IMG/VR virus record: IMGVR_UViG_3300045988_110853
Coordinates: 4,077 to 68,076 of that record
Length of the DNA: 64,000 nt
Strand: one strand, 5' to 3'
Origin: a virus
Positions 13,330 through 56,773 of the stretch are shown in pieces. The position numbers were made by a program, and so were the translations under genes. The notes below the pieces were generated by a model. It made no database searches, had not been told where the DNA came from, and was given only the letters and a program-made list of their open reading frames with translations. Every line of letters begins with the position of its first letter. Positions within the stretch are counted from its first letter, which is position 1.

Positions 13330-13368
13330 TTCTATATATATTATATTATATTTTTTATAAAAAATCAA
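13330..13368 (-). promoter_or_regulatory. class-A phage promoter (TTGATT-N17-TATAAT)
   Basis: -35 at 13363-13368, -10 at 13340-13345, conserved downstream ATATATAGAAAG. Confidence 0.6.
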
Positions 13369-13439
13369 AAAAGTTATTTCAAACTAGACACGTTAGAAAA
13401 CATAATTTCAAGTTATGTGCGTTAACCAATTTCGCCAAA

Positions 13440-13509
13440 ACCCCAGTTGGAGTTTACAGGATTTGAACCCGTATACCTTTCTAATGAAAGAATTGCTGTA
13501 TGTGTCTTA
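13440..13509 (-). other. tRNA-like 3-prime portion (T-arm ACGGG TTCAAAT CCTGT) without foldable 5-prime half
   Basis: T-loop GGTTCAAATCC on minus strand directly after tRNA-Pro. Confidence 0.25.
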
Positions 13510-13585
13510 TGGTCCGAGTGGAGCGACTCAAACGCTCGGCCTCTGCATCCCAAATGCAGCGTTCTATCAACTGAACTACACCCGG
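13510..13585 (-). tRNA. tRNA-Pro (anticodon TGG), CCA encoded
   Basis: Acceptor CCGGGTG/CACTCGG, anticodon loop TTTGGGA with G37, T-arm GAGCG TTTGAGT CGCTC. Confidence 0.75.
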
Positions 13586-13686
13586 AAATACGGCTAAGGT
13601 CCCGCACCACACATCCGATTTTTGTTCCCCACATATAGGAGTGGGTATGACCTTTAGGCGGAATCGAATTTGTTATTAACCGCCCA

Positions 13687-13763
13687 TGGTAGTCCGGGTG
13701 AGACTTGAACTCACGACCCTGCGATTATCAGTCGCATACTCTAGCCAGCTGAGCTACCGAACT
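13687..13763 (-). tRNA. tRNA-Ile (anticodon GAT), CCA encoded
   Basis: Acceptor AGTTCGG/CCGGACT, anticodon loop CTGATAA, T-arm GTGAG TTCAAGT CTCAC. Confidence 0.8.
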
Positions 13764-13824
13764 ATAAACAAGACTAAATTATCAATACTATTGCCTCTAC
13801 CAGTTGGGCTAACTCCCGATGGCC

Positions 13825-13866
13825 GGGAGCGAAGGACTTGAACCTCCAACACATAGTTCCCTTTAT
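13825..13866 (-). other. tRNA 3-prime fragment-like element (T-arm + acceptor strand + CCA) at start of tRNA operon
   Basis: GGAGG TTCAAGT CCTTC GCTCCCG G CCA; followed by inverted repeat CGGGAGT forming 7-bp hairpin; no 5-prime half. Confidence 0.35.
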
Positions 13867-13894
13867 GATAAAAATTGCTGTTTTAGTCTTTAAT

Positions 13895-13933
13895 TTATAT
13901 ATTTATTATATAATATTTTTTTATAAATGTCAA
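13895..13933 (-). promoter_or_regulatory. class-A promoter driving tRNA operon 13866-13440
   Basis: TTGACA 13928-13933, TATAAT 13905-13910. Confidence 0.6.
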
Positions 13934-13942
13934 AAAGTTTTA

Positions 13943-14800
13943 TTAAGTAGTTAAAAATGCGTTATAACCTTTTGATTTTAAATCATTGATTACTTTAATA
14001 GCATTTGCTTTTATAGAAAAAGCACCTACTTGAACTTTATAATACTTGCCTATCTTGCGAATATAAGCATTTTTATAACCTGCTCCAATAGTATCAGGTA
14101 ATGCTTTAATCTTCAATAAGAAAGCATCAGCATTGGATTTAGATCCAAAAGCACCAAGTTGAACGCGATAAATAATTTGCGGTTTAAGGTAAACTGCCAT
14201 TACATTATCTACTGCGCGATTACCCCAGTCTTTAGTAATACAAGTTCCATTGTGAAGAACTTTTGTGCTACCACCGCCATCAAGATTAATAGCATAATCA
14301 ACCTTTAATGTTAAAAGTAAATTCTACATTTCCGCAAACGCCATACCTGGCTTTTCAATAGCGATTAAATAAATATTAGATTTATTATATGCTAATACTG
14401 TTCTGCGAGCTTTATAATCTAATTCTTTAGCATAAGTAATTTGAGCTTTTTTACCAGCTTTAATTAATACCGGATAACCACTGACAAAATCTTCAAATCT
14501 TTCTGTCCCAATTATGCCATATTTCAATTCACCATTAACTATGCCAAATCCTTCTTTATAAGAAGAAGTAGAATTAATGATTACACCATTATCCATATAA
14601 TTAAAACAAGTAGCACCATTATCCATACTAAAGAAACCGCCATTAGTTAAAATAGTAGGTTTAACCGCACAACTATCATAATATTGCTTTAAAGTCTAAC
14701 GCGGTTGGGCGCATAACGCCATATCTAACTTACTAATTTCTTCTTTTGGAATTTCAATAATTTTCACATACGAATAATTATTTGGAGAATATATTTTCAT
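13943..14800 (-). CDS. putative cell-wall hydrolase: NAGPA (phosphodiester glycosidase)-like domain plus C-terminal SPOR domain (2 in-frame TAG)
   Basis: RBS aaggaaggtg; YAINLDGGGST motif; C-terminal SPOR repeats YRVQLGAF..YKVQVGAF; TAGs at 14324 and about 14700. Confidence 0.55.
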
Positions 14801-14860
14801 CGAATCACCTTCCTTAATATTTTTAAGGTTTTAATGATTCTTATTAATGGAATATACCCT

Positions 14861-14937
14861 TGGCATCCCCGGAGCGATTCGAACGCCCGACACAAGGATT
14901 AGAAATCCTTTGTTCTATCCAACTGAACTACGGGGAC
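14861..14937 (-). tRNA. tRNA-Arg (anticodon TCT), CCA encoded
   Basis: Acceptor GTCCCCG/CGGGGAT, anticodon loop TTTCTAA, T-arm GGGCG TTCGAAT CGCTC. Confidence 0.8.
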
Positions 14938-15043
14938 AAATTCGCTACAAGACTCTTTATTCTTCTTAATCCCACATTAAGCGCTTATTGAAAGCAAAAG
15001 ATTGCTGTATGAGTCTTTATTTAGTTAAGAAAGGAAATACCAT

Positions 15044-15087
15044 GACAATGGTAGGGTGAGGGAGACTCGAACTCTCCATTGAGCGAT
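15044..15087 (-). other. tRNA 3-prime fragment-like element (T-arm GGAGA GTTCGAG TCTCC + TCACCCT A CCA)
   Basis: Lies 10 nt after the CCA of the upstream tRNA-like gene; no 5-prime half. Confidence 0.35.
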
Positions 15088-15090
15088 TTG

Positions 15091-15170: not shown

Positions 15171-15208
15171 CTAGTCTAGCCTTTGACTTACCACCCCAGA
15201 TCGGCGAG

Positions 15209-16610: not shown

Positions 16611-16624
16611 ATTTCTTTACTTTT

Positions 16625-16662
16625 CATATATTTATTATATATTATTTTTTTAATAAAGTCAA
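16625..16662 (-). promoter_or_regulatory. class-A promoter (TTGACT-N17-TATAAT)
   Basis: -35 16657-16662, -10 16634-16639. Confidence 0.55.
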
Positions 16663-16698: not shown

Positions 16699-16704
16699 CG
16701 CGTA

Positions 16705-18049: not shown

Positions 18050-18286
18050 TTATTTACACCTATATATGATTAGCTTAGGCTTAATACTATATCCACAATA
18101 ACTACGCCAAGTGCGATAATTACTAAAAATATAATACTTTCTATCAGCTTTAATATTACCAAATAAATTTAAAACTCTCAATCCTTGGTTATAATGAGAA
18201 GTTTTATTATTCACTTGGTAATTAGCCCAATCAAGAATTTCTTGACCGCTAAAACAAGGATTTTTATAGCTTAAAATATTTTTCAT
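18050..18286 (-). CDS. hypothetical protein
   Basis: 78 aa ORF with RBS agaggagg. Confidence 0.45.
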   Translation of the reverse strand: MKNILSYKNPCFSGQEILDWANYQVNNKTSHYNQGLRVLNLFGNIKADRKYYIFSNYRTWRSYCGYSIKPKLIIYRCK

Positions 18287-18354
18287 ATCCTACCTCCTCT
18301 GCTTTTCTGGACTTGGAACCAGCTTATGGTAGCATTAGATAGGCGACCGCACTT

Positions 18355-20218: not shown

Positions 20219-20249
20219 TATACATAATTTAAATCTTCCTTTCTTAACT

Positions 20250-20288
20250 TTCTATAAATATTATAACTTATTTTTTATAAAATGTCAA
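20250..20288 (-). promoter_or_regulatory. class-A promoter
   Basis: TTGACA 20283-20288, TATAAT 20260-20265. Confidence 0.55.
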
Positions 20289-21591: not shown

Positions 21592-21619
21592 TAAAAGAAG
21601 GACTTTTTAAAATCCTTAC

Positions 21620-21659
21620 TTTATATATTTATTATATTATATTTTTTTTAAAAAATCAA
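21620..21659 (-). promoter_or_regulatory. class-A promoter (proximal of a tandem pair) driving tRNA operon
   Basis: TTGATT 21654-21659, TATAAT 21631-21636. Confidence 0.55.
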
Positions 21660-21707
21660 CTTTTCTCTTTTACCCAAGTTTTTTTATTTTCTTTTTTCTT
21701 TCTTCAT

Positions 21708-21747
21708 TTTATATAAATATTATATAATATTTTTTATAAAATGTCAA
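21708..21747 (-). promoter_or_regulatory. class-A promoter (distal of tandem pair)
   Basis: TTGACA 21742-21747, TATAAT 21719-21724. Confidence 0.55.
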
Positions 21748-21926
21748 TAAGGTCTTTGAATTGGCATTAAATCATCTTCTGAAAGAAGCCATTTTTCACC
21801 ATGTTCGTCAAGGACTTCAATCTGATAATTTAACACTCGAAGAACAGTACATTTAAGATACTGTCTGCGATAGCAACGACCGCGATAAGGGACAAAACAA
21901 TAAGAATTACCAACTTCAATATTCAT
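21744..21926 (-). CDS. small hypothetical protein
   Basis: 60 aa ORF with RBS aggagaaaataaata. Confidence 0.4.
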   Translation of the reverse strand: MNIEVGNSYCFVPYRGRCYRRQYLKCTVLRVLNYQIEVLDEHGEKWLLSEDDLMPIQRPY

Positions 21927-21949
21927 TATTTATTTTCTCCTTTCTCAAC

Positions 21950-21988
21950 TTTCTATATATATTATATTATATATTTTTTATAAAATCA
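21950..21988 (-). promoter_or_regulatory. class-A promoter
   Basis: TTGATT 21983-21988, TATAAT 21961-21966. Confidence 0.55.
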
Positions 21989-22016
21989 AAAAAGTTCTTT
22001 TGTTTAAAAAAATTAA

Positions 22017-22100: not shown

Positions 22101-22119
22101 ATAAAACAAGACCTTAACT

Positions 22120-22200
22120 TTGCCCGGAAAATGGATTTGAACCATTAACTTAATCTTAAATGATTATGACCTAACCTTTAGTCTATTCTGGAAGTTATTT
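22120..22200 (-). other. tRNA-like gene with 6- or 8-nt anticodon loop (TAATC ATTTAA GATTA)
   Basis: Acceptor TCCAGAA/TTCCGGG with mismatch, D-arm GAC TAAAGGTTAG GTC, T-arm AATGG TTCAAAT CCATT. Confidence 0.25.
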
Positions 22201-22224
22201 TTGCTGTAAAGGTCTTTCTTTATT

Positions 22225-22263
22225 TTATAAATATATTATATATTATTTTTTTAAAAATGTCAA
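22225..22263 (-). promoter_or_regulatory. class-A promoter
   Basis: TTGACA 22258-22263, TATAAT 22235-22240. Confidence 0.55.
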
Positions 22264-22269: not shown

Positions 22270-23148
22270 TTAATTTCGACCAACATCTAAAATATAACAA
22301 AAACCAGCTAATCTATATTCAGGTTTAAAGAAATATTGAGCTAAAGCTTTTGCGCAATGATCCGCAGAATTTCGTCCAGAAAGTTTAATGTTATTAAATC
22401 CAAGAGGAAGATACTTATCAATAATTTCATCCATATAAATCATATCTTTATTACCGATTTCTGGAAACATAGAATCATTATTTTTAATAGTAGTACAACT
22501 TCTTTCTTTATCATTAAAAGCCTGAAAAAGATTCATTTTAGAAAAAATATTATAATGAGTATATAAGCGCGGACAGTCAATAGGACATGTTTCGTCTACC
22601 AAAATTTCAATTCTATTCCTTTTATTTTCTGGTACAGAATTTAAAAAATCCCAGTCTCGATTTTTACGACGAGGAATAACTACACTTTCATAAATATCAA
22701 GTGCTTTTACAAAATCATAATCTTCCTTTGCAGCTGTAATACTCTTTGTAAGTTTATAATTAGGAAACTTATCTCGAAGATACTTTTCGAGAATAGGAGA
22801 ATTAACAATAATTTCATTCATTCCATTATCAAAAAGTTTAAGCATTTCATTACATTGTCTATCATATACGTCTGTTTCTTCAAGGTTAGGATTTGTAAGG
22901 GTAAAGCGCAAAATAATATTATTCTTTTCATAAAATTCTCGTACAGCACAGAGATAATCAATATTATGTTCTGGCATTCCGCCCATAAAACCTCCGCCAT
23001 TCCAAATCATGCCAGGAAGTGCACCATAAACATATTTTACTTTTGCTTCTGGATAAAAAGCTTGAGGTTCAAGCTCTTGAAGTTCAAGTAATCTATCATA
23101 AACATCAATACCATAATAAAATTCAGGGCAATTAAAATTAATATCCAT
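22270..23148 (-). CDS. hypothetical protein, last gene of YcaO/radical-SAM cluster
   Basis: 292 aa ORF, very AT-rich codon usage. Confidence 0.55.
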   Translation of the reverse strand: MDINFNCPEFYYGIDVYDRLLELQELEPQAFYPEAKVKYVYGALPGMIWNGGGFMGGMPEHNIDYLCAVREFYEKNNIILRFTLTNPNLEETDVYDRQCNEMLKLFDNGMNEIIVNSPILEKYLRDKFPNYKLTKSITAAKEDYDFVKALDIYESVVIPRRKNRDWDFLNSVPENKRNRIEILVDETCPIDCPRLYTHYNIFSKMNLFQAFNDKERSCTTIKNNDSMFPEIGNKDMIYMDEIIDKYLPLGFNNIKLSGRNSADHCAKALAQYFFKPEYRLAGFCYILDVGRN

Positions 23149-23161
23149 TTATATTCTCCTA

Positions 23162-24979
23162 TTAGTAATTTGCAATCATTGTTTTAAAATCTTTAGAATT
23201 AAAAATTTCTCTCATTGGTTCAAGAATACATTTTTCAACCAAATATTTTCTATTTAAAATATTATTAAAATCTTCATTAGTATATTCATAATTATATTCT
23301 TTTAAAATATCAATTATTTCATCTTTAGAATATTTCCTACTTTTTACATAAGAATATAAATTAAGATACTTTTTAAATTTTTTATAATAAGGACTTACTG
23401 TAATATCTACGGCAAATTGATTATCTTCAAGAAGATAATCAGCAGGATCTTCAAATAGATTTTTTACAAAAATTTCATTAGGAATAGTTTGCACATCTAC
23501 ATTATTATATGAAACAAGTAAATCTCCTTGTGATAAAAGCCCTAAAAATCTATCAGTTAAAGTGTCTCCTTCAATTAAATCTGTAAATGTTAAAGAATCT
23601 TTAATAATATCATATACTCCATCACCAGTATCTAAATATTTTTGAATATGTCCGCATTTATTTTTAGTAAGAATAGCACTTTTTTTTAAAGTCTTTAATG
23701 TTTTACATTTATTTAAAAAAGAATACCAAAATCCGTCAAGATTGTCAAGATAAATATCAATTGCTGTAATTTTATTACTTAAAGATACATCAGCATAATA
23801 AATTTTTGCTCCAATTGATTTTGTAATTTTTTTATTCCACTCAAGAATTTCTTCATTAGAATAACTTTTATTCTCGTAGGATAAGAATACATCTTTATTT
23901 ATAGTATTTACATACTTTTTATTAAGAAGAATATTCTCAGGAAATGTATTTAAATTAGTAATACAAGAACCACCCATGATAATAATATCATCATCATTTA
24001 ATGTATTATAAGGAAGAATAATAGAAAATTTTCTATCATCATAAGAGAAACAATTTTGATACATTTCAGTTAAAATACGTTCAACCGCAATTTCAAACAC
24101 AGGAAAAGCGCCAAAATTTGCAGAAATAGTTCCATTTTTATAATTGATAAGAACTCCCATTACTACTGGAATATTAAAAGTTCTTGACATATCAATAATA
24201 TAATATTTATTACCATGAGATTCAATAGCATTAATAATATCTATTAGTTTTTTATCAGTAATACTATTAATATCAAAAAAATAATAATTTTTATCAGTAT
24301 TAGTATAAAAATGACTAACTACGTAATGTTCAAAAATTTCTGATAATCCTTGATTTAAAGCTTCAGTTAAAGTATTACCAGCGGCCATACCAGAGCTACC
24401 TTGATAACGTTGAACAAGACGTGGGTCTAAATATTTAATATCTTTATCATCGTTTAGATTGATATAAGGAGTGCCAAAAAATTTATTATTATACATAGAA
24501 ACAAGACAATCTTTAATTAAATAGTTAGTTTCTTCATCAAAAGAATTAAAAAATTTATACATTAAAGATTCTTTTTCTCCAAGAGCTTCTTCAAAGCTTA
24601 CTTCTTTTTCATTTTTAAATAATGAATATCCATAATTTTTTTGATTTGCTTTAATTTTTTCATTACATAAAAATGGATTACATAAATAATGTAATCCATT
24701 ACAAAATCTTTCATACATTTCAGCGTATCCAGAAGCCATAGCGAATTCTTTAGATACTCCTTTACCGAAAGATCTTAAAATAGAATGACCTTTATAATAT
24801 AAACGAAGAGCAAGACTCCAAGTCGTAGATTGTTCTTGACGCAAAACTTCTTCGATGCAATAAAAGTCTCGATCCGCGAAGAATTGCTTAATGTTATTTA
24901 CTGTGTCTAGAGGACTAATTTCTTTATAATGTTGTGAATAATTATTCATATGATATTTTGCCTTTCTTTTTCCTATCAT
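23162..24979 (-). CDS. YcaO-domain protein with about 300 aa C-terminal extension of unknown type
   Basis: SFGKGVSKEFAMASGYAEMYERF and QGSSGMAAGNTLTEALNQGLSEIFEHY match YcaO ATP-binding motifs; 605 aa, no in-frame stops. Confidence 0.7.
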   Translation of the reverse strand: MIGKRKAKYHMNNYSQHYKEISPLDTVNNIKQFFADRDFYCIEEVLRQEQSTTWSLALRLYYKGHSILRSFGKGVSKEFAMASGYAEMYERFCNGLHYLCNPFLCNEKIKANQKNYGYSLFKNEKEVSFEEALGEKESLMYKFFNSFDEETNYLIKDCLVSMYNNKFFGTPYINLNDDKDIKYLDPRLVQRYQGSSGMAAGNTLTEALNQGLSEIFEHYVVSHFYTNTDKNYYFFDINSITDKKLIDIINAIESHGNKYYIIDMSRTFNIPVVMGVLINYKNGTISANFGAFPVFEIAVERILTEMYQNCFSYDDRKFSIILPYNTLNDDDIIIMGGSCITNLNTFPENILLNKKYVNTINKDVFLSYENKSYSNEEILEWNKKITKSIGAKIYYADVSLSNKITAIDIYLDNLDGFWYSFLNKCKTLKTLKKSAILTKNKCGHIQKYLDTGDGVYDIIKDSLTFTDLIEGDTLTDRFLGLLSQGDLLVSYNNVDVQTIPNEIFVKNLFEDPADYLLEDNQFAVDITVSPYYKKFKKYLNLYSYVKSRKYSKDEIIDILKEYNYEYTNEDFNNILNRKYLVEKCILEPMREIFNSKDFKTMIANY

Positions 24980-25014
24980 ATAAATATATTACTATATTTT
25001 TTTAATAAAGTCAA
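24975..25014 (-). promoter_or_regulatory. class-A promoter variant (TTGACT-N17-TAATAT)
   Basis: -35 25009-25014, -10 24986-24991. Confidence 0.45.
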
Positions 25015-25083
25015 AAACCTACCAAATAAAGTGGTAGGTTTTTGACTTTATCAAATTAAATAAAAACAATTAGGGCATAAATA

Positions 25084-25305
25084 CTAATTATCATTTATTT
25101 TAAATAATGGGATATTATTTATTTGTAAATTACATTTAGAGCATCGTTTATTTTTATAAATTTTTGGTATAAAAATTTCTATATCTGGTTCAAATAAGTT
25201 TAAAAGATTATTAGATATTCTTTGAAAATAAATATCTTTTTCTTCATTACTATCATTATAATTATATTGTAAAATATATTCACACATTATTTTACAATGA
25301 TTCAA
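25084..25305 (-). CDS. small Cys-containing hypothetical protein
   Basis: 73 aa ORF; TAG-interrupted coding continues upstream to about 25700. Confidence 0.3.
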   Translation of the reverse strand: MNHCKIMCEYILQYNYNDSNEEKDIYFQRISNNLLNLFEPDIEIFIPKIYKNKRCSKCNLQINNIPLFKINDN

Positions 25306-25712
25306 ATTAGTTAATTTTAATTCCTCTATTGGGACAACAATACTAGATATATTATCTAAATTTATTTTAGATTTAATTATATACTATATTTGAAGAATTA
25401 TAGTTTTATCTTTTTTAATAATTCCTAAATTAAAACAAACGAAAAGTATCCAATAGTCATAAATACTATTATTATCAAAATCAAAAGATAAAGCTCTTAT
25501 TTTATCCCAAAAAATTTGTTCTGAAGTCTCAAATCCACCATTACTAAATTTCATTTAATTCTCCATTAAAACAATAATTATAATAATTATTTGTATCTTT
25601 TTCAAGTTGAATACTTCGAGGATAATCTAATTCCCAAGATGTTCTTTTATTATAAAACTATAAAAAATTTTTTAATATATCTTGTATAAATTCTTTATAT
25701 TCATCATAAGTA

Positions 25713-27767
25713 TCAATCATATAAATCATACTCTTCTTTCTCAAGATAATTTAGAAATTGATCGTAAACAAATTGATAATATATATATCCATTAAAATAA
25801 TTTAATATTGGATATACTTCTTTTTTTAAATTATCAAATGATTTAATATATTCTCCATCTAAGCAATGAAAATTAATAGTATTATTTTTTATATCACTTA
25901 TAATTTTTTTACTCAATGGGCATAAACAATCATTATTTATTTGATTTAAAGGATAAATTAAATTTATTTTATATAAAATATAATAGCTTGTTTTAATGAA
26001 ATTTTCTATAAAATAATTATTATGTTTTATATAAATTAAATTATCATATTCATAGAAATATTTTATTTCATATAAAATTCTAATAATTATTGATTGTAAT
26101 ATTTTATTTTTTTTATCTGAATTTAAATTATAAATATAAAAAAACTATAAAAAGAAAATAACTATTTTTACTAAATAATCTATAGCTTCAGATAATCCTG
26201 TATGAGATATATTGCCTGGATTAATATTTAAATCAATTATATAATTTCCAATAGTCTAATCAATTAATTGCCCTTCTCCATATAAATTACATAAATCAAA
26301 GAATAAATTATCTTCACACAAACAAAAATTACTATATTTTATATTATATTTCTATAAAAAATCTCGCTTTAAAATTAACCCAAGCTTATTATCAGGAATA
26401 ATAAACTATATAAAATCATTTTTTTTATTATTTTTTATAGAATTATAAAGAATTTCTAATTCATTATCTGTATTAAATAAATCATCTGAATCCCAAAATA
26501 AAATATATTTATTAAATGAATTTTCTAAGCCTATATTTCGGGCGGATCCCGGACCTTTACGAGCAATATTTTTAAAAAAGAAACAAGAAAAATCCGCGTT
26601 ATCAAATATTTTAATAACTTTTCTTTCGCAAGCTGAATTATCACTTATTAAATATACACAGCAATCTTTAATAATTGTTTGCGCTCTTAATGAATTATAT
26701 AAATCAATTATCTAATTATCATTAAGATTATAATAAGGAATAATTATATCTATTTTACCATTAATAAATCTATTTATACATTTTTGTAAATAATAATTAT
26801 TATACCGGAAATCAATTGGGGTCTTACCATTTAAGAATTCCTAATAATTGTTTAGAAAATCTTCTTTATTATTTATAAGTTTTAAATAAAAGTTATAGTC
26901 TTCAAAATAAGCATTTTCCATTGATATAGTAAATTCTGATTTAGTATTATAACATTTATGCCATAGCCAAGAAGTGACCGGTAAAGTGGCATCACAATAT
27001 TTACAAATTTTTTTAGGTGAAAATATAAAATTATGTAAGTCATCTAAACTATTTATATTTTCTAATTGTAAATAATCTTTATCCTCTTCTGGAATATTTA
27101 AATTATATTTTTTACAATAAATATCTAAAAATGCGGAAAAGGGACAAATATATATTTTATAATCTTTTAATGTAAAACAAGGTATTTCATGCGGACAATA
27201 TTGATAATAAGCTTTTATTGGATCAGTATCTCCATTTTCATTTACAAGCTATTGACGCATAAATAATCGTTCTTGATGATTAAAAGCAATACCATATTCT
27301 TGACATTCTTCAACATCTTTATAATCTGTATAATTACTATAAGCAGTTATGTCAAATATTATATCCATATCAAGATATTCTTTTTTATGTTTAATAGTGT
27401 CTTTCATATTTAATCCGTTAGATAAAACTTTTAATTGAGTTTTTTCTTTTGGAAATATTTCACGAGCTATTTTACATAATTCAAATAATTGTGGGTGAAG
27501 AGTTGGTTCTCCACCCACAATCATAAATACTTTTATATTAGGAATTTTTTTATTAGCTATAATAATCTAATTGCGGAAATCATTTACATCAATAAACCAA
27601 GGGGTGGCTAAAGGTGAAAAATGATTGCAACCTGCACAATTAAGATTACAATGATCTACTACCTGTATCTCTAGACTTACACCATCATAAACAGATTTCC
27701 AAAGACTATGTGTATATGGAGGAGTCCCACGGTAATCTTTATCTTTCTTTATCTGTATATCGTTCAT
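25713..27767 (-). CDS. TAG-rich coding region: small radical-SAM (CxxxCxxC + GGEPTLHP), Cys-rich SPASM-like segment, then GT2 glycosyltransferase (IIIPYYN, DSDD); apparently one ORF with about 8 TAG
   Basis: VVDHCNLNCAGCNH and MIVGGEPTLHP at N-term; QYCPHEIPC...CKYCDATLP Cys cluster; GKIDIIIPYYN and FWDSDD GT2 motifs; only TAG interrupts the frame by eye. Confidence 0.4.
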
Positions 27768-28320
27768 CGAAATCTCCTAATATATGAGTGTTATAATCAA
27801 CTAATTCTCTTATTTGATTATTACGTTCATGTAAAAAACATTGAGTACAAATTTCATTTAAATCATTTAAAGGTTCATGGAAAAAATTGCAATAATGTTT
27901 TTCAAAATCAAAATATTTACAATGCTTATCACATATTAAAATATCATTATCTTTATCATAAATTACAGAATGGTCTTCTCGTAAACGAAAAGATAATTGA
28001 ATTTTAAACATTAAAGTTCCTTGATAAGAATATAAAAAAGTTTTATAAAATATGTCTTGAACTTTACTTTCAAAAGTAAATTTCTATTTATCTGTAGTAA
28101 TAAGCTCAATGCATTCTATTTCATTCTAATCTATAGTTTTAACTTGCTAATAAACCTAATTTAAAAAAGAATAATCAATATCATTCTAATCTTTAATTAT
28201 TTTCGCAAAAACTATTTCTTTTGGAAAATTTAATTGAAATATAATATCATCACATTGACGCTCATTAAATTTAACAGATTTTAAAATTTCTTTATTTGAA
28301 TTAATAAAATTAATAACCAT
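27739..28320 (-). CDS. Cys/His-rich hypothetical protein (about 5 in-frame TAG)
   Basis: MVINFINSNKE...; C-terminal CDKHCKYFDFEKHYCNFFHEP..CTQCFLHE. Confidence 0.35.
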
Positions 28321-28636
28321 TTCTCTTATCAGGAATTCCTTTTAATCGATCTCCTAAGAAATATCTATATAATTCATAAGAATCAATACCATTATCACAA
28401 TAACAATTATTATTATTTTCATTATTGTTGTTATCGTTATTATTAGATTTTTCTGTATGATCTGTAATAATTATTTTAATAAAATTATTAATAATAGTAT
28501 TAATTTCTTCATTCTCACCATTATTTTCAATCCAATTTAAATAAATAATATATAAAAGATCTCTATAATCTTCTACATTACTATAATCAAAAGTTTCAAT
28601 TAAATGGTTAATTTGATTTTTCATTTCTTCAATCAT
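28310..28636 (-). CDS. hypothetical protein with poly-Asn tract
   Basis: 108 aa ORF. Confidence 0.4.
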   Translation of the reverse strand: MIEEMKNQINHLIETFDYSNVEDYRDLLYIIYLNWIENNGENEEINTIINNFIKIIITDHTEKSNNNDNNNNENNNNCYCDNGIDSYELYRYFLGDRLKGIPDKRNGY

Positions 28637-40378: not shown

Positions 40379-40654
40379 TTACTCCACCCACTCTTTCGTG
40401 TCCTTATCATTCCAGAAAAGATCAAACTCAGTATATGCAGTGCCATTCTTATCTTTCTCAATAAGAATATCCATCATATGTTTATAGCCACTATCATCAG
40501 GATAATCCATTTCCCAAATCTCACGAATTTCATAGCGAGACTCGTGCGGGTCTACCAAATGAGAAATGAATTCCTCTACGGTCCAAGTATCAGTAGCCGT
40601 ACAAAACACCAAACCATAACGCTCACTATGAACCGCGATTACCTTCTCAACCAT
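40379..40654 (-). CDS. hypothetical protein
   Basis: 91 aa ORF. Confidence 0.4.
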   Translation of the reverse strand: MVEKVIAVHSERYGLVFCTATDTWTVEEFISHLVDPHESRYEIREIWEMDYPDDSGYKHMMDILIEKDKNGTAYTEFDLFWNDKDTKEWVE

Positions 40655-40883
40655 TGTTATCTTCTCCTAATATATCACAAATTGCCTGATGACTAAATGT
40701 AATCTTTGCTCCAAAATAAGGAGCAGTTTCATCATCAGTGATAATAATTTCTGCGAAAGCAATATCATATTGATAAAAAATTACAATACGCTTAATTGCT
40801 TCTAAATAATCAGAGGCTACCATTATACCCTGAAATTCTTTTTCTTCTGGATCGGTTGTATGGACTATGTAATAATACTTCAT
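40647..40883 (-). CDS. hypothetical protein
   Basis: 78 aa ORF. Confidence 0.4.
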   Translation of the reverse strand: MKYYYIVHTTDPEEKEFQGIMVASDYLEAIKRIVIFYQYDIAFAEIIITDDETAPYFGAKITFSHQAICDILGEDNNG

Positions 40884-40904
40884 TACAAATAACCTCTTTT
40901 CTTA

Positions 40905-40945
40905 TTTTCTATATATATTATATATTATTTTTTTAAAAATGTCAA
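40905..40945 (-). promoter_or_regulatory. class-A promoter (perfect TTGACA-N17-TATAAT)
   Basis: -35 40940-40945, -10 40917-40922. Confidence 0.6.
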
Positions 40946-40952: not shown

Positions 40953-41240
40953 TTACCAACCACGACACACGAGCATACTTACATAGTCAGTATCACAAAA
41001 AGTATTGCGAAGCTCAGCATAAACGCGGTTTACATTAGCAAAGATTTCGCGCTCTTCTTCATCAACAAGAGATAAATCTTCATCATTGTTAATGAAATAA
41101 ACTTCGGTATAATAATCCCAATCACCAAGGATAATGTCTAAAACATCATCAATGTCGTTCTCAGACCATTCAGGAAAAGTATCGCGAAGCCAAATCGTAA
41201 ATTGATTTCCATATACAATAGGTTTCAAAGTATAATTCAT
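40953..41240 (-). CDS. hypothetical protein, tandem paralog A
   Basis: 95 aa; about 55 percent identical to 41275-41559 product (FANVNRVYAELR shared). Confidence 0.5.
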   Translation of the reverse strand: MNYTLKPIVYGNQFTIWLRDTFPEWSENDIDDVLDIILGDWDYYTEVYFINNDEDLSLVDEEEREIFANVNRVYAELRNTFCDTDYVSMLVCRGW

Positions 41241-41274: not shown

Positions 41275-41559
41275 TTACCAATCACAACATACAAGCAGGG
41301 TTTTGTAATCGGTATAACAAAAGAATTTGCGGAGTTCCGCATAGACGCGATTCACATTGGCAAAGATTTCAAACTCATCTTCATCACAGATAGATAGATC
41401 TTCATCATTACCAATAAAACGAATTTCTACATAGCTACCATAATTAAGAAGAAATTCCAGCACATCATTTATATCATCCTCAGTCCAATCGGGAAAAGTG
41501 TCATGAAGCCATTCAATGAACTGATCATGACGCACAACCGGCTTAGAAATATAAGTCAT
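41275..41559 (-). CDS. hypothetical protein, tandem paralog B
   Basis: 94 aa. Confidence 0.5.
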   Translation of the reverse strand: MTYISKPVVRHDQFIEWLHDTFPDWTEDDINDVLEFLLNYGSYVEIRFIGNDEDLSICDEDEFEIFANVNRVYAELRKFFCYTDYKTLLVCCDW

Positions 41560-41584
41560 ATAAAAAAAGTCCTTTCTTAACTTT

Positions 41585-41621
41585 CTATAAATATTATATA
41601 ATAATATTTATAAAAAATCAA
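41585..41621 (-). promoter_or_regulatory. class-A promoter
   Basis: TTGATT 41616-41621. Confidence 0.5.
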
Positions 41622-44338: not shown

Positions 44339-44364
44339 AAGCGTCTCTCCTTTTTTTTATCTTC

Positions 44365-44415
44365 TCTTTAACTTTCTATAAATATTATAATATATTTTTT
44401 TATAAAAATAAAGAA
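44365..44415 (-). promoter_or_regulatory. class-A promoter variant
   Basis: ctttctataaatattataatatatttttttataaaaataaagaaag. Confidence 0.4.
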
Positions 44416-46379: not shown

Positions 46380-46394
46380 TCCCTTTCTTAACTT

Positions 46395-46432
46395 TCTATA
46401 AATATTATATATTATTTTTTATAAAAAATCAA
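46395..46432 (-). promoter_or_regulatory. class-A promoter
   Basis: TTGATT 46427-46432. Confidence 0.5.
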
Positions 46433-47456: not shown

Positions 47457-47474
47457 ATTTTTTATTTTCCTTTC

Positions 47475-47525
47475 CTTAACTTTCTATATATATATTATAA
47501 TATATTTTTTTATAAAAATAAAATA
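47475..47525 (-). promoter_or_regulatory. class-A promoter variant
   Basis: ctttctatatatatattataatatatttttttataaaaataaaataagg. Confidence 0.4.
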
Positions 47526-47557
47526 AGGACTTATGAATTAACATAAGTCCTTATTAT

Positions 47558-50387: not shown

Positions 50388-50411
50388 AATTTTTTATTTC
50401 CTTTCTTTACT

Positions 50412-50450
50412 TTATATATATATTATATATTATTTTTTATAAAAAATCAA
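50412..50450 (-). promoter_or_regulatory. class-A promoter
   Basis: TTGATT 50445-50450. Confidence 0.5.
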
Positions 50451-50486
50451 AAAAGGATTTACGATTTACGCAAATCCTTTTAAAGA

Positions 50487-52610: not shown

Positions 52611-52949
52611 TTAAGAAATTGTAGAGATTAAAAAAATCTCGGGATCATCAAGGCTTTCGATAGGGATTTTAAGAAACTTTGCGTAAGCTTCCTTCATTGT
52701 GTCATTAAGGCGATAATATTCCTGCGGTGCGATAAAGATGTTGTCAATGCGAACGGCTTCTCCCGCAGAAGACTCACCGAGAAGATAACCGAAGATAGGA
52801 TTTTCGTCGTTATCATAATCGCTTGCGCGATGCCAATAACCTTCCTCAGTAAGCTGTTCGATAGCCTCAGTCATATTTGAATAATTTTTGAGAATGTTCT
52901 TGGGAACCTTATAACCGCACACGAGCTTAGAACCAAAATCAACAGACAT
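52611..52949 (-). CDS. hypothetical protein
   Basis: 112 aa ORF after class-A promoter. Confidence 0.45.
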   Translation of the reverse strand: MSVDFGSKLVCGYKVPKNILKNYSNMTEAIEQLTEEGYWHRASDYDNDENPIFGYLLGESSAGEAVRIDNIFIAPQEYYRLNDTMKEAYAKFLKIPIESLDDPEIFLISTIS

Positions 52950-52984
52950 TATTTATCACCTTTCAATAGTTTTTCTTTATTTTA

Positions 52985-53029
52985 TATATATATTATATAT
53001 TAAAATTTAATAAAAATCAATAACGCGGT
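52985..53029 (-). promoter_or_regulatory. class-A promoter
   Basis: TTGATT 53024-53029. Confidence 0.5.
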
Positions 53030-53039: not shown

Positions 53040-53520
53040 TAAAGTAGTATAAAGACTGGGTTTAATGATCGGTTTACCAAAAATGGTCATTTTAAATGAA
53101 AATGGTCAAAATTTTCTATATGTTGGTCTAAAATTTCTATATTTTTGTCCGTTTTTTTCTATATTTCTGGTCAAAAAATACTGATGAAGAGATCGGATAG
53201 CGAGTATAGAGGCGGATTGAGGCAAGGGAAACCGCGTAGGCAAAAATTTTAGGTAATTTTTCATAGTTGTTTATAAAAATATTAAATAAAATAGGTAATT
53301 TTTCATAGTTCCCTATTTTTATATAGCTGTCTAAATTTTAAACAAAATAGGTAAAAATTTTAGGTAATTTTTCATAGTTCCCTATTTTTATTTAAAAATT
53401 GTAGGTAATTTTTAATAGTTAGCGATCGGTTTTACGAGAATTTTTAAGAAATTTTTCATAGTTGCCTTTAAAAATATACTTTGGGTAAAAATTGTTAAAA
53501 TTACTATTTTAGATTTGAAG
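53040..53520. repeat. origin-like region with at least two iteron families
   Basis: AGGTAATTTTTCATAGTT about 5 copies; TTCTATAT and TGGTC(A/T) direct repeats; divergent-transcription boundary. Confidence 0.5.
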
Positions 53521-53732
53521 TATATATGAAGGAGGTGGAAGTGTTGTCGGTAGAATAGAAGAGATTTCCCGCTAATGTAGATATGAATATATTAACTTTT
53601 TTAAATAATAAGAAGATAAATGGCGAGTTATACGCTTATTTATAGAGCTTATCTGAGTATGATGTTATTAATAAATAGTATAATATTTATAAGACTTATG
53701 TATTAAAAAAATGGTTGCCAATTCAAAGTAAG

Positions 53733-54176
53733 ATGTGCCAAATGCTTGGTATTAAAAGTCCTAAAACATTAAAAACGCATTTGAATTATTTAATTGAATA
53801 GGGCTATATTATTGAAGAAGAAGATAGATATATATTACCTGAGATGGAAAATATATATTTTCTTATTCCTTTACATACATTAAGATATATAAATGATAAC
53901 TGTAAAGAACATATTATAAAAATATATATTTATTTGGGATAGCGTTATAAATATGCGTTAAATAATGGAAGTTAGTATGAATTTACATTAGAGGAAATTG
54001 GAGAACATAGTGGTATAAAAGTTAAGAATAACAGCAGAGGTTATGAAATTATTAATAATGCTTTAACATTTTTATAGAATTCAGAATTGATTGATTATGT
54101 TAGTTTTTTTGATGGATAGATGTAGAAAAAGAAATTAACAAAGTTTAGTTTTGAATATAAAAATTAGAATAGGTAA
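53733..54176 (+). CDS. winged-helix replication-initiator/regulator-like protein (at least 8 in-frame TAG); start uncertain
   Basis: Only frame free of TAA/TGA; LKTHLNYLIE-TAG-GYIIEEEDRYILPEM...EEIGEHSGIKVKNNSRGYEIINNALTFL. Confidence 0.4.
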
Positions 54177-54240
54177 TTTTTAATAGTTGCCGATGAGTAT
54201 TTTAGGTAATTTTTCATAGATGCTTCGACTTAAATTAGGT
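54170..54240. repeat. second cluster of AGGTAATTTTT(C/A)ATAG iterons
   Basis: two copies flanking rep-like gene end. Confidence 0.45.
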
Positions 54241-54287
54241 AAAAAATCATAGATTATCTAAGTAATAAGTAGAGAGTGTTTTCTAAG

Positions 54288-54345
54288 TAGTTTGTATGAT
54301 ACAAACGATCGGCATTCGCCTCACTTTGTATCATACAAACGTTTG
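54288..54345. promoter_or_regulatory. two 17-bp palindromic operator-like sites upstream of 54378 gene
   Basis: GTTTGTATGATACAAAC and CTTTGTATCATACAAAC 20 nt apart. Confidence 0.45.
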
Positions 54346-54377
54346 ATTTTTAGATGAAAAGAAAGGTGATAAATAGA

Positions 54378-54662
54378 ATGGTTAATGAAGAAAGAAGAAT
54401 AAATTCTTTGGATTATGCTATGTATGAATTTTTAGATCAAATGGGTAGAACAGATTTAGCAAAAGATTTATTAGAAGGAGTTATTTAGTATCATTATGAA
54501 AATCATTATTATGGAGATAATGAGTTTGTAGAAAAATATTTAAAATGGTTTAGTTAGGGATATTTAGATAGAATAATTAAAGAAAATTATATGGAATTAA
54601 TGATAGATGAAAGTTAGAAAGATGTTTATGAAAAATATAAAGAAGAATTAGAATTAGAATAA
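54378..54662 (+). CDS. hypothetical protein (3 in-frame TAG)
   Basis: RBS aaagaaaggtg; MVNEERRINSLDYAMYEFLD-TAG-MGRTD... Confidence 0.45.
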
Positions 54663-54918
54663 AGATGATATCGGTATTATAGCTGGTAAATTATCTTTAA
54701 ATGGATTAAGAGTATATTTATTTTTAATTAATAATAATTTAAATTAGTTTGAGATAGAAGATTATGCTAATTGGTTAAATAAAGATTATGATTCTAATAG
54801 TAATAAAAGTAGAGCTATTAGAAAATCATTGAATGATGGAATATAGAATTTATTAGATAATAATTATTTAATTGAAAGAGATAAAGATAATTATATCTTA
54901 GTGTAAAAGGAGTAAAAT

Positions 54919-55182
54919 ATGAGTTATAGTTATACAGATGTAAGAGGAGGAAAAGGAAACCCTTCTATTGTTAAATTTGCCAGAGGAACGCAAGAATAGT
55001 TTGATAAGTTAGATAAGACAGGTATGATAAAACCTGATTTATATATGAAAGGTGATACTCTTTATTTAGTTATTCCTACACCAAATACTAAACCAATTAA
55101 AGTAGTATTCGACAATAATGATAATGATAAGCCTGAATCAATAGAAGAGAATCCATTCTTACAAAACTCTATTTGCTATTAA
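54919..55182 (+). CDS. hypothetical protein (1 in-frame TAG)
   Basis: RBS taaaaggagtaaaat; 87 aa. Confidence 0.45.
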
Positions 55183-55321
55183 TTAAAAATTATATTATAA
55201 TATAAATAGTAAAGAAAGAAATAAAAATTTAAAGTGAAATATACCGGGGTATATTATTCTTATGAAAAATAGGGGTATTTACTCCGGGGAACATTTCAAA
55301 AAATGAAATAAAAGTAAGGAT

Positions 55322-55714
55322 TTGAAAACTGAAATGAAATTTACGATTGAAGAATTAAAGAAGAATAATGGAGAAAAGGTAGGCGTTTTCCGTAATTGGA
55401 ATGTTATTGCAACTACCAAGAAAGAGTTCTTTAATAGAGAGAATACGCAAGGCGCGTATCTTATTTGGGACGACTGTAATAAGCTTGTATTTAACGGGAA
55501 GGTTGTTGGTAGAATTAGTGAGAATGGTAGAGTAGAGTATATCGAGAGTGAGTACCGCTATGTGAAGCCGGTCTTACAGGAGCAGGCCGCAGACAACTAC
55601 ACTGAGAAAACTGTTGCTCTTGGATCGGAAGATGTGGATCTTACTAAGCGCACACTTGCTGATGATATTCTTGATAGTGCATTTAAAATGAAATTGGAGG
55701 AGCTTTTAGCGTAA
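55322..55714 (+). CDS. hypothetical protein
   Basis: 130 aa ORF. Confidence 0.5.
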   Translation: MKTEMKFTIEELKKNNGEKVGVFRNWNVIATTKKEFFNRENTQGAYLIWDDCNKLVFNGKVVGRISENGRVEYIESEYRYVKPVLQEQAADNYTEKTVALGSEDVDLTKRTLADDILDSAFKMKLEELLA

Positions 55715-55787
55715 TGGGTATTATTTGTTTTTTACTTGGTGTTGCTGTTGGATATTGTATATGGAATGCTGGAAGAGACCGTTAATA
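55713..55787 (+). CDS. possible 24-aa hydrophobic peptide (ATGA overlap with upstream gene)
   Basis: MGIICFLLGVAVGYCIWNAGRDR. Confidence 0.2.
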
Positions 55788-55929
55788 GATCTATACTGGT
55801 TGATTCGCTTCTGGATTATTATTAAATTAATGGGTTCGGAAGGTTCGGATACTACGTATCCTCACTGTAAGGGAAAAAGAATTAAATTATAAAGAAATGG
55901 GTTGAAAACGTAGTAATATTAATAGTTGT

Positions 55930-56040
55930 TAATATTATAGAAATTACTAATATTGTTAAAGATTGTTAATATTGTTGAAAATTGCTGAAATTATTAGAAA
56001 TTGTGAAAACGTTGAAAATTGCGAATATGCCCTGCCGATC
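55930..56040. repeat. short degenerate direct repeats (GAAAATTG / TTGTTAA units)
   Basis: attgttaaagattgttaatattgttgaaaattgctgaaattattagaaattgtgaaaacgttgaaaattgcg. Confidence 0.4.
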
Positions 56041-56087
56041 GGTTTTACTAAACCACCAACCACATTTCCTCGTCTCTGTTTCCGACA

Positions 56088-56138
56088 ACCCATAAAAAAA
56101 AGAGAGACTTTTTTTAGTCTCTCTTTTTTCGTATTAGG
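56088..56138. terminator. bidirectional rho-independent terminator
   Basis: A-run, 10-bp stem AAGAGAGACT/AGTCTCTCTT with T7 loop, T-run. Confidence 0.65.
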
Positions 56139-56196
56139 CAATTCTTGGTGAAATTGTCGATTCTTAGGATGAAAAATATCTCACCCGACACATTGT

Positions 56197-56574
56197 TCAC
56201 TTATTGATGAAAGTATTCAAAAATTCGGCAATTACATCATCATCAGTTCTCTTGACCTTCTTAACCTTTACCTTCTCACTCTTGGGAAAAAGCGCGTCAA
56301 GAAGATCGTTAACCCCGGTCATAAGACCGTAGACCTCAGCAAAGATATTTTCCACATCAGATGCGGTCAACGCAGAATCCTTGTAGCCATTAAGAGCGGC
56401 ATACTCGTTAATCCGATCGGCGATTTCCTGCGCGAGCGCAGCCTTCCGACCGGCCTGCTTAGACTCCTTCTCCACCTGCTTAACCGCATCGTTCAGAGAC
56501 TTAGCCATTTCGTCCGCAATAGCCTGAGCGTCCTCACCATTTTTCAGACGAGCAATAATATCATTCATATCCAT
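56197..56574 (-). CDS. hypothetical protein
   Basis: 125 aa ORF after tandem class-A promoters. Confidence 0.5.
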   Translation of the reverse strand: MDMNDIIARLKNGEDAQAIADEMAKSLNDAVKQVEKESKQAGRKAALAQEIADRINEYAALNGYKDSALTASDVENIFAEVYGLMTGVNDLLDALFPKSEKVKVKKVKRTDDDVIAEFLNTFINK

Positions 56575-56594
56575 ATGAATACCTCTTTTCTTAT

Positions 56595-56634
56595 TTTCTA
56601 TATATATTATATACTATTTTTTTAAAAATGTCAA
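56595..56634 (-). promoter_or_regulatory. class-A promoter
   Basis: TTGACA 56629-56634. Confidence 0.55.
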
Positions 56635-56734
56635 GATTTTTTTGGACGAAAACATACGCGTGAAACAATGTAAGGGCGAAGCAATTTTTAATTAATCATA
56701 AAGGCATATGATCCTACGCGGGCTTAAAAAAGTC

Positions 56735-56773
56735 TTTTTTTATCATTATAACATATTTTTTATAAAAAGTCAA
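56735..56773 (-). promoter_or_regulatory. class-A promoter (upstream of tandem pair)
   Basis: TTGACT 56768-56773, TATAAT 56745-56750. Confidence 0.5.

Follow-up and report, generated by a model that had tools for sequence, protein, structure and literature searches.

In T4-type phages, promoter-early stem-loop (PeSL) cassettes mediate modular shuffling (Arbiol et al. 2010, PMC2839356; Comeau et al. 2014, PMC4122927). The SPO1-like phages (Herelleviridae, e.g., Kayvirus 812) carry arrays of sigma-A early promoters in their host-takeover and terminal-repeat regions (PMC6445280, Fig. 5). For gut phages with a recoded stop codon, a published model holds that early genes are translated in the host code before the code is switched (Borges et al., preprint 10.1101/2021.08.26.457843), and theta ribozymes are known to adjoin suppressor tRNAs in recoded phages (Kienbeck et al. 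2024, PMC10879173). Here, we describe a promoter-leader cassette that recurs about 20 times on the minus strand of a 64,000-nucleotide stretch of viral DNA (positions 4,077 to 68,076 of IMG/VR record IMGVR_UViG_3300045988_110853), which we refer to as the window. Our analysis of the sequence suggested, with a probability of about 0.8, that a large lytic phage uses the repeats as early or delayed-early cassettes for the initiation of transcription and translation and that they are read by the unmodified host primary-sigma (sigma-A/sigma-70) RNA polymerase.

The cassette is analogous to those of the T4 PeSL family but does not belong to it. As in PeSL, a terminator hairpin is combined with a putative host-sigma early promoter, although only in some copies here, the repeats are numerous and lie between small variable ORFan genes, and they are points of homologous exchange that make insertions and deletions (indels). 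In contrast, T4-like phages have Gram-negative hosts and the host here is probably a member of the Bacillota, and the two types of repeat have no sequence relationship. Furthermore, the hairpin is found in about one-third of the copies in the window, the transcribed leader and ribosome binding site (RBS) are conserved, and only one locus of cassette-to-cassette crossover is documented.

The resemblance to the SPO1-like phages lies in the dense consensus sigma-A promoters with strong Shine-Dalgarno (SD) sequences in front of many small early genes; here too, the small, presumably early genes were clustered, and each had a sigma-A-type promoter and a strong RBS. In addition, an AAA ATPase encoded in the window was about 42% identical to the ATPases of Herelleviridae (Enterococcus and Bacillus phages), which were its nearest ATPases. 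The differences are that the phage described here is TAG-recoded and belongs to no cultured group, and that its promoter copies are far more uniform and have a fixed start region. The early promoters of phage T5, whose host is E. coli, are strong promoters of the sigma-70 type; they have A/T-rich spacers, their initial transcribed sequences matter for function, and they are not known to be near-identical copies. The cassette shares with them the consensus hexamers, the A/T-rich spacer, a conserved downstream region that plausibly affects promoter escape, and a large tRNA block nearby, with no known homology between the two. As in the recoded gut phages, TAG is read as Gln in structural and accessory genes, the putative early genes are TAG-free, a tRNA with the anticodon CUA is encoded, and an element resembling the hepatitis delta virus (HDV) ribozyme is adjacent to it. 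The papers on those phages do not describe promoters, whereas in the window a promoter motif delimits the putative early regulon and would assign the suppressor tRNA to it.

Identification and anatomy of the cassette

A 54-bp weight matrix was built from 17 copies and used to scan both strands of the window, with 50 shuffled windows serving as controls. The main copies scored 37 to 70 bits and a degenerate copy at 24991 scored 28.6 bits, compared to a best score of 18.5 bits in the shuffled windows (n = 50). Similarly, the 18-mer TATAATATATATAGAAAG was found 23 times in the window when up to three mismatches were allowed, compared to 0.68 ± 0.87 times in dinucleotide-preserving shuffles.

An earlier model-made reading of the same letters (the original prediction) had listed 20 minus-strand sites, with two tandem pairs among them, and had placed the motif before minus-strand genes. 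All 20 sites exist; 19 were recovered in the matrix scan, and the copy at 56.75 kb, which has no conserved leader and is outside the matrix list, was found by an exact-string search. The first bases of the minus-strand TATAAT elements are at positions 13345, 13910, 16639, 20265, 21636, 21724, 21966, 22240, 24991, 37121, 38788, 40922, 41598, 44389, 46409, 47499, 50427, 52997, 56611, and 56750, and we name the copies after these positions. Both tandem pairs are real, with 88 bp between 21724 and 21636 and 139 bp between 56750 and 56611. The motif was enriched in the window scan, and the placement before genes was confirmed, the copies being intergenic and on the gene strand. Terminator fusions, copies that lead into noncoding RNAs, the recoding context, recombination at cassettes, and a second promoter family at 57 to 64 kb had not been part of the original prediction.

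The consensus of the cassette is (C)TTTTT-TTGAYW-TTTTTATAAAAAATAATA-TATAAT-ATATATAGAAAG-TTAAGAAAGGA-N7-10-ATG. The spacer was exactly 17 bp in all 22 copies that were examined, and the -10 hexamer was TATAAT in all of them except the 24991 copy, in which it is degenerate (TAATAT). The -35 hexamer varied, being TTGACA in nine copies, TTGATT in seven, TTGACT in three, and TTTATT in three. Thus, the consensus sigma-70 geometry that had been proposed was borne out, with canonical hexamers and an invariable spacer length. The weaker relatives of the cassette are located at 35641 on the minus strand and at 55196 on the plus strand. No cassette was found below 13 kb, and none of the AT-rich type was found above 57 kb. 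The extreme AT content that had been attributed to the DNA was overstated; the GC content of the window averages roughly 35%, and the very AT-rich parts are only the cassettes and an island at 22 to 30 kb.

Placement, leaders, and fused terminators

Every copy is intergenic and on the same strand as the gene that it serves. In 14 copies, the promoter is followed by an SD sequence and a start codon, with the ATG about 27 to 46 nt away. The canonical copies have the SD sequence 19 to 23 nt after the -10 element and the ATG at +32 to +38 from it, and the extremes for the ATG are +43 to +46. The idea of a conserved and presumably transcribed leader that ends in the RBS was supported for the canonical copies and failed for the 56.75-kb copy. 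As for the copies that do not head an mRNA, the 16639 and 21636 copies start tRNAs, the 22240 and 13910 copies lead into a structured noncoding element, and two others are the upstream members of the tandem pairs.

In 7 of the 22 copies (16639, 24991, 37121, 38788, 44389, 47499, and 50427), a strong hairpin (-17 to -24 kcal/mol) abuts the -35 element. The stems of these hairpins are 13 to 15 bp, and either the U-tract or the 3′ arm overlaps the -35 element; the hairpin is absent or vestigial in the other copies. The hairpin and the cassette appear to form a terminator-promoter fusion.

The genes downstream of the cassettes yielded nothing significant in Pfam or PHROGs searches and are ORFans, as is typical of early host-takeover genes. 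Overall, the cassettes precede small ORFan genes and tRNA operons, and they are absent from the TAG-recoded structural block.

Stop codon recoding and the suppressor tRNA

The window belongs to the genome, about 190 kb in size, of an uncultivated phage with genetic code 15 (TAG to Gln). Reading TAG as a sense codon restored long minus-strand open reading frames (ORFs) at 0 to 11, 24 to 28, and 32 to 36 kb, and the TAG positions in the lysin gene aligned with Gln in homologues. The genes in which TAG serves as a sense codon are the structural, accessory, and plus-strand genes at 1 to 11100, 25000 to 36500, and 53500 to 55200. Specifically, 18 TAG codons were found among the 3,197 codons of the structural block at 1 to 11 kb, and 19 were found among the 3,334 codons of the block at 25 to 36.5 kb. 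In contrast, the 24 genes (3,560 codons) in the block at 36.5 to 53 kb contained no in-frame TAG, although TAG occurred 51 times out of frame. In this putative early block, TAG is wholly absent both as a sense codon and as a stop codon.

A suppressor tRNA with the anticodon CUA, which reads TAG, is encoded at 12208 to 12296 on the minus strand (ARAGORN; Rfam tRNA, 56.2 bits), 1 kb downstream of the 13345 cassette. Because no minus-strand terminator was predicted between 13345 and 12207, the 13345 cassette probably also drives the suppressor tRNA. The TAG-free block fits the published code-switch model, with early timing being what the codon usage suggests. The original prediction had proposed early or middle transcription that depends on a host sigma factor, and the placement of the cassettes, their absence from the structural block, and the 0 of 3,560 TAG count argue for this proposal. 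If so, a single motif would delimit the standard-code early regulon of an uncultivated, TAG-recoded family of gut phages, with the suppressor tRNA inside it, and the idea of a code switch that acts as a timer becomes directly testable.

An HDV-like ribozyme match was noted at 12152 to 12206 on the minus strand (Rfam HDV-F-prausnitzii, 26 bits, E = 0.22, below threshold). It starts one base past the 3′ end of the suppressor tRNA, which lacks an encoded CCA, and this context is the one published for theta ribozymes. The match is thus a candidate HDV-like (theta-type) ribozyme.

A search for a late-promoter motif upstream of the TAG-containing genes returned TATATTATTTA, but this sequence has just three exact matches on the gene strand, a number too small to support a claim.

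Conservation of the cassette in related phages

At the DNA level, the genes of nine close relatives are 85 to 92% identical to those in the window. Identity is 96.8% for the orthologous cassettes, compared to 88.8% and 91.2% for the 150-bp flanks. The same architecture was found in distant relatives, namely L020 (51% ATPase identity), L038 (74% lysin identity), L040 (61% lysin identity), and L044 (43% lysin identity). In these phages, the layout is TTGAnn, 17 bp ending in TGn, TATAAT, and AT(A/T)TATAGAAA, and the sequence of the spacer drifts. The hexamers and the start box are therefore under selection across the phage family. The candidate reasons for the conservation of the start box are that it could optimize the start site or promoter escape, stabilize the 5′ end of the mRNA, or be read by a phage factor.

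How the cassettes are likely to be read

In the mechanism that we favor, each copy would supply a -35 element (TTGACA or TTGATT) and a consensus -10 element, kept 17 bp apart by a rigid A/T spacer. The A/T-rich discriminator would set the start near the A-G of ATATAT-AG, which is the usual 7 nt past the -10 element, and the resulting leader of about 27 nt would be purine-rich and unstructured (AGAAAGUUAAGAAAGGA), with its SD sequence 7 to 10 nt before the ATG. In one-third of the copies, the presumed intrinsic terminator of the preceding unit is fused to the cassette with its U-tract over the -35 element, a fusion that would split the region into many short, independently and strongly expressed units. 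The units would hold TAG-free small ORFan genes, which are translatable in the standard code of the host, as well as phage tRNA operons that include the TAG suppressor tRNA, which would later enable translation of the recoded structural genes. Such a promoter mechanism is ordinary for a large lytic phage.

Several observations weigh against reading by the unmodified host polymerase or against the early timing. The TG of an extended -10 element is missing from the lineage of the window and present in its relatives. Recognition by sigma-A alone would not require the degree of conservation seen in the downstream box and the A-tract spacer, and this excess may reflect an extra phage factor or some other constraint. 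Three copies have a weak -35 element (TTTATT). A perfect TTGACA-17-TGnTATAAT promoter at 36507 to 36479 on the minus strand serves a gene that holds two TAG codons, so promoter class and code usage are imperfectly coupled. The presence of a second sigma-A-type promoter family leaves either class possible as the immediate-early class. Finally, the host evidence (binning and domain similarity) is consistent with Bacillota and is indirect, and most of the genome lies outside the part in which phage polymerase and sigma genes were sought.

Some of these points are what would be expected if the cassettes were middle promoters that need a phage factor (an alternative sigma factor, a MotA/AsiA-like appropriator, or a phage-encoded RNA polymerase) to read the A-tract spacer and/or the ATATATAGAAAG box, with the class B promoters at 57 to 64 kb then being immediate-early and host-only. 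The excess conservation of the spacer and start box, with the box kept down to 43% lysin identity, the existence of two internally homogeneous promoter families in adjacent genome blocks, and the copies with a weak -35 element are all in keeping with this explanation. However, the hexamers and the 17-bp spacing are exactly the sigma-A/sigma-70 consensus, and the relatives add the Firmicute TGn extended -10 element, which is a feature of primary-sigma promoters. Moreover, no sigma-like or RNA polymerase-like gene was found among the approximately 40 window proteins that were scanned, which represent about half of the plausible genes. We consider a requirement for a phage factor to be unlikely.

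It is quite improbable that the repeat is first of all a recombination or mobility element, either PeSL-like or resembling a miniature inverted-repeat transposable element, that was selected for gene shuffling and in which the hexamers are secondary. Recombination at the cassettes did occur. Two relatives (L003 and L007) have lost 2 kb between the upstream flank of the 46409 copy and the downstream flank of the 44389 copy, which are now joined; the crossover point is in the spacer in one relative and after the -10 element in the other. Furthermore, the number of paralogues beside the 41598 copy is 0, 1, or 2 among the relatives, and the greater conservation of orthologous copies relative to their flanks is a pattern that concerted evolution would also give. 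In contrast, the copies do not vary in strand, in how far they lie from the start codon, or in their 17-bp spacing, and the other indels between relatives have junctions that are not in cassettes. In the diverged relatives, the spacer sequence changes but the -35 element, the -10 element, and the start box do not, a pattern that marks selection for promoter function as opposed to simple sequence identity. In our main reading, the near-identity of the promoter cassettes makes them, as a secondary effect, homologous recombination sites at which genes are deleted, duplicated, and shuffled. This extends the PeSL concept of promoter-terminator repeats as gene-shuffling engines past the T4-like phages.

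Chance or the base composition of an AT-rich genome, to which one might attribute the weak opposite-strand matches of a cassette that is about 90% A+T and partly palindromic, was ruled out as the source of the repeat by the excess over shuffled windows in both counts and bit scores (even for the weakest listed copy), the one-strand intergenic placement, and the conservation of the cassette in other phages.

If the host polymerase does read the cassette, the cassette could be used in low-GC Firmicutes as a compact part that combines a strong promoter with an RBS. The features that deserve follow-up are the conserved start box, the connection with the code switch, and the RNAs that some of the copies are predicted to drive.

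Stem-closed RNA elements and permuted tRNA-like genes

The tRNA block of the window (17 to 20 tRNA genes at 10.8 to 22.2 kb, one of them with the anticodon CUA, according to ARAGORN and Rfam) contains a family of stem-closed elements of the form AAAGAC-N3-5-(A)CAGCAA...cargo...N3-5′-GTCTTG, in which the closing stem covaries. The elements in the window are all on the minus strand, at 13770 to 13890, 13386 to 13507, 14949 to 15017, 22108 to 22216, and 12770 to 12931, and others were found in L020, L038, L040, L042, L044, L013, L193, and L206. They are usually directly 5′ of a tRNA gene, and about 10 instances begin right at a class A promoter, as we refer to the cassette when it is set beside the second promoter family. 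Three complementary bases were found beside GAC/GTC in 21 of 28 signatures (a pairing that was not imposed), compared to a mean of 4.5 and a maximum of 11 in permuted controls, and 11 different pair types were represented.

The cargo of the elements is a normal tRNA, a T-arm, a simple hairpin, or a circularly permuted tRNA-like gene. The element at 13770 to 13890 (AAGACUAAA...UUUAGUCUU) lies downstream of the 13910 cassette, from which it is presumably transcribed, and carries a permuted tRNA-Pro(UGG)-like cargo in the order 3′ half, CCA, a one-base linker (U), and 5′ half. Its orthologue gave a clean tRNA-Pro(UGG) when the ends were joined in silico, and the predicted junction of the end-joined tRNA-Pro runs from ...AUUG to GGAACUAU. 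The element at 13386 to 13507 carries a permuted type-II tRNA-like gene with closed acceptor, T, D, and anticodon arms, and its fold is a permuted cloverleaf (z = -2.3). For the element at 22108 to 22216, the cargo is an unpermuted tRNA-like gene (22122 to 22192, 37.9 bits) with a 6-nt anticodon loop. Permuted genes were also found in L010 (5068 and 5497), L020 (5400), L040 (12172), L044 (5235), L193 (8598), and L206 (3270).

When permuted candidates were circularized in silico, ARAGORN found a full cloverleaf across the junction in 6 of 8 candidates and in 0 of 1,350 shuffled controls. In a separate analysis that did not assume complementarity, 14 of 58 arrangements of the type T-arm, 7 nt, linker, 7 nt, D-arm had at least 6 of 7 acceptor pairs, compared to 2.4% of the controls, and at least 9 different acceptor sequences were found among the complementary arrangements. 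This excess of acceptor complementarity ruled out the possibility that the apparent permuted tRNAs are merely neighboring tRNA genes.

Permuted tRNA genes have been described only for some algae and one archaeon, where they depend on bulge-helix-bulge splicing (PMC3978253), and we found no report of such genes in bacteria or phages in the literature that was searched. Neither the cassette leader nor the stem-closed elements correspond to an Rfam family; the matches were restricted to tRNAs and to sub-threshold twister-P1-like and HDV-like hits. When IMG/VR was scanned for exact matches to the 5′ signature of the element, most of the matches were due to chance, and only 7 of 124 had a paired 3′ partner. 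The element is presumably not a hammerhead, hairpin, twister, or retron-like RNA, as the conserved nucleotides do not appear to fit those cores. We tentatively suggest that some cassettes are promoters of an undescribed stem-closed RNA family with permuted tRNA genes among its cargo, one of which is predicted to give a perfect tRNA-Pro(UGG) once joined; this is a possibility that we would not yet call probable. If such RNAs do mature into working tRNAs, a bacterial phage would make tRNAs by end-joining permuted precursors without bulge-helix-bulge machinery. The RNAs that a few of the cassettes are predicted to drive are more surprising material than the promoters.

Two other RNA-like features were noted on the minus strand of this region. 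At 12565 to 12757, a tRNA-like gene has an insert of about 120 nt between its 5′ part (acceptor, D-arm, and anticodon region) and its 3′ part (T-arm, acceptor, and CCA). At 18291 to 18341, just upstream of a small ORF (18050 to 18286), there is a twister-P1-like match (39 bits, E = 1e-5, below the Rfam gathering score).

Features of the individual copies

All copies described here are on the minus strand and of class A unless stated otherwise, and the genes named are those that they are predicted to drive. In the tRNA block, the 13345 copy (13317 to 13368, 70.0 bits) reads TTGATT-17-TATAAT-ATATATAGAAAG-TTAAGAAAGGA, has an ATG at +35, and drives a 64-amino-acid ORF (13111 to 13305) and then tRNA-Val. 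The 13910 copy (13882 to 13933, TTGACA-17-TATAAT, 54.8 bits) is of the noncoding type, with a leader that runs into the stem-closed element at 13890 to 13770. The 16639 copy (16611 to 16662, TTGACT-17-TATAAT, 40.7 bits) is fused to a 15-bp terminator hairpin at 16699 to 16666 (-23.1 kcal/mol) and drives tRNA-Leu(aag), whose 5′ end is 24 nt past the -10 element (29 nt from its first base).

The 20265 copy (20237 to 20288, TTGACA, 62.5 bits) is a 12 of 12 match to the consensus and drives a 35-amino-acid ORF. In the first tandem pair, the upstream 21724 copy (21696 to 21747, 63.9 bits) is also a 12 of 12 match, and the downstream 21636 copy (21608 to 21659, 46.6 bits) drives tRNA-Asn at 21590 to 21514, which starts 46 nt from the first base of the -10 element. 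The 21966 copy (21938 to 21989, 61.9 bits) has an ATG at +35 and drives a 60-amino-acid ORF (21744 to 21926), and the 22240 copy (22212 to 22263, 64.1 bits), another one of the noncoding type, drives the stem-closed element at 22216 to 22108 with its tRNA-like gene.

The degenerate 24991 copy (24963 to 25014, TTGACT-17-TAATAT, 28.6 bits) drives the YcaO gene, and its -35 element is within the 3′ arm of a 15-bp hairpin (-21.0 kcal/mol). The weak relative at 35641 (35613 to 35664, TTGACA-17-TATAAT-ATAAATATAAG, 22.4 bits) heads a peptidase/radical-SAM operon. The 37121 copy (37093 to 37144, 63.4 bits) has an upstream hairpin of -24.2 kcal/mol and a structured 73-nt leader to the ORF at 36627 to 37043.

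In the TAG-free block, the 38788 copy (38760 to 38811, 60.4 bits) drives a 534-amino-acid ORF, and its weak -35 element, TTTATT, is the U-tract of the fused terminator at 38846 to 38809. The 40922 copy (40894 to 40945, 64.7 bits), with a 12 of 12 match, drives the ORF at 40647 to 40883. The 41598 copy (41570 to 41621, 64.2 bits) drives tandem paralogues at 41275 to 41559 and 40953 to 41240, the second of which retains only the leader GAAGTTAAGAAAGGAC of the cassette. The two crossover partners in L003 and L007 are the 44389 copy (44361 to 44412, 54.4 bits), which is fused to a terminator at 44445 to 44411, and the 46409 copy (46381 to 46432, 67.6 bits). Terminators are also fused to the 47499 copy (47471 to 47522; terminator at 47555 to 47522, -17.4 kcal/mol), which scores only 37.5 bits because of a 2-nt register shift in the downstream box, and to the 50427 copy (50399 to 50450, 69.8 bits; terminator at 50481 to 50451). 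The 52997 copy (52969 to 53020, 54.7 bits) drives the ORF at 52611 to 52949.

In the second tandem pair, the downstream 56611 copy (56583 to 56634, 60.1 bits) is a 12 of 12 match and drives the ORF at 56197 to 56574; the 56750 site (56722 to 56773), which lies 139 bp upstream of it, reads TTGACT-17-TGtTATAAT, with an AT-rich spacer and no conserved leader. The plus-strand relative (55173 to 55225, TTGCTA-17-TATAAT-ATAAATAGTAAAGAAAG, 33.4 bits) precedes a plus-strand ORF at 55334 to 55714.

A second promoter family

Between 56.7 and 64 kb, we found 37 promoter-like sites compared to 15.2 ± 3.7 expected. Alignment revealed a second (class B) family at 56700 to 64000, mostly on the minus strand, with at least nine perfect TTGACA-17-TGnTATAAT sites. 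The class B promoters have spacers that contain G/C and a conserved start region of their own (ACATCAAATGArAGG), and the GC content of the block is about 44%.

Two head-on promoter pairs are arranged around GC-rich hairpins in this block, at 59.70 to 59.80 kb and 62.24 to 62.34 kb. In addition, a conserved hairpin, GAGGTTGAGAGAACGATGGTAAACCTC, was found in the 5′ leaders of two class B units (upstream of 57714 and 60448, at about 58150 and 61270 on the minus strand).

The phage and its probable host

Near-identical contigs of 190 to 195 kb were found in human-gut metagenomes of the Hadza and in IMG/VR sample 3300045988. A megablast search with 14 kb of the window returned no near match among GenBank phages, and tblastn searches with the 534-amino-acid early protein and the lysin returned domain-level matches alone. 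These searches place the phage outside every cultured group, as far as sequence comparison can tell. In addition to the ATPase, the proteins of the window include tail-like proteins (Mtd_N and Listeria-Bacteroides repeat domains), an NAGPA-SPOR lysin, YcaO, and several radical-SAM proteins.

The host is probably a member of the Bacillota. The original prediction had pointed to a Firmicute-like host, and this view gained support from several directions. Strong SD sequences precede nearly all real genes, the cassettes of relatives carry the Firmicute-typical TGn extended -10 element, and the nearest ATPases are those of Herelleviridae. One relative encodes an SLH-domain protein. In GTDB genomes, full-length relatives of the lysin were found only on phage-size contigs binned with Bacillota metagenome-assembled genomes ("Mollicutes," Eubacterium, Lachnospiraceae, Oscillospiraceae, and Clostridium sp. 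CAG:452), and the SPOR domain of the lysin resembles those of Faecalibacterium phage endolysins.

Other features of the window

An island of 22 to 29% GC at 22270 to 32300 on the minus strand encodes ORFans, a YcaO cyclodehydratase, and three radical-SAM proteins, one of which is fused to a glycosyltransferase. The 37.1-kb and 22.2-kb cassettes lie 15 kb apart in the window, compared to only 7.7 to 8.5 kb in L003, L006, and L009, the relatives in which both cassettes fall inside the available sequence.

In the tail-gene block, the minus-strand gene at 930 to 1709 encodes a 259-amino-acid protein similar to the C-terminal part of glycine/sarcosine/betaine reductase selenoprotein B (Pfam GRDB, E = 4e-45), a match that is unexpected for a phage structural region. 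A protein with a major-tropism-determinant N-terminal (Mtd_N) domain is encoded at 6876 to 8366 on the minus strand, and two such genes lie side by side in L035, an annotated relative. The domain suggests a target of a diversity-generating retroelement; no reverse transcriptase was seen within the window.

A plus-strand, heavily TAG-recoded module flanked by iterons is located at 53.5 to 55.9 kb. Seven iterons with the core TAGGTAATTTTTCATAGTT are on the plus strand at 53240 to 53480 and 54160 to 54240, on either side of a plus-strand ORF (53541 to 54176) that has 10 in-frame TAG codons, and the GC skew of the surrounding region is strongly positive. This region may be a replication origin together with its initiator gene.

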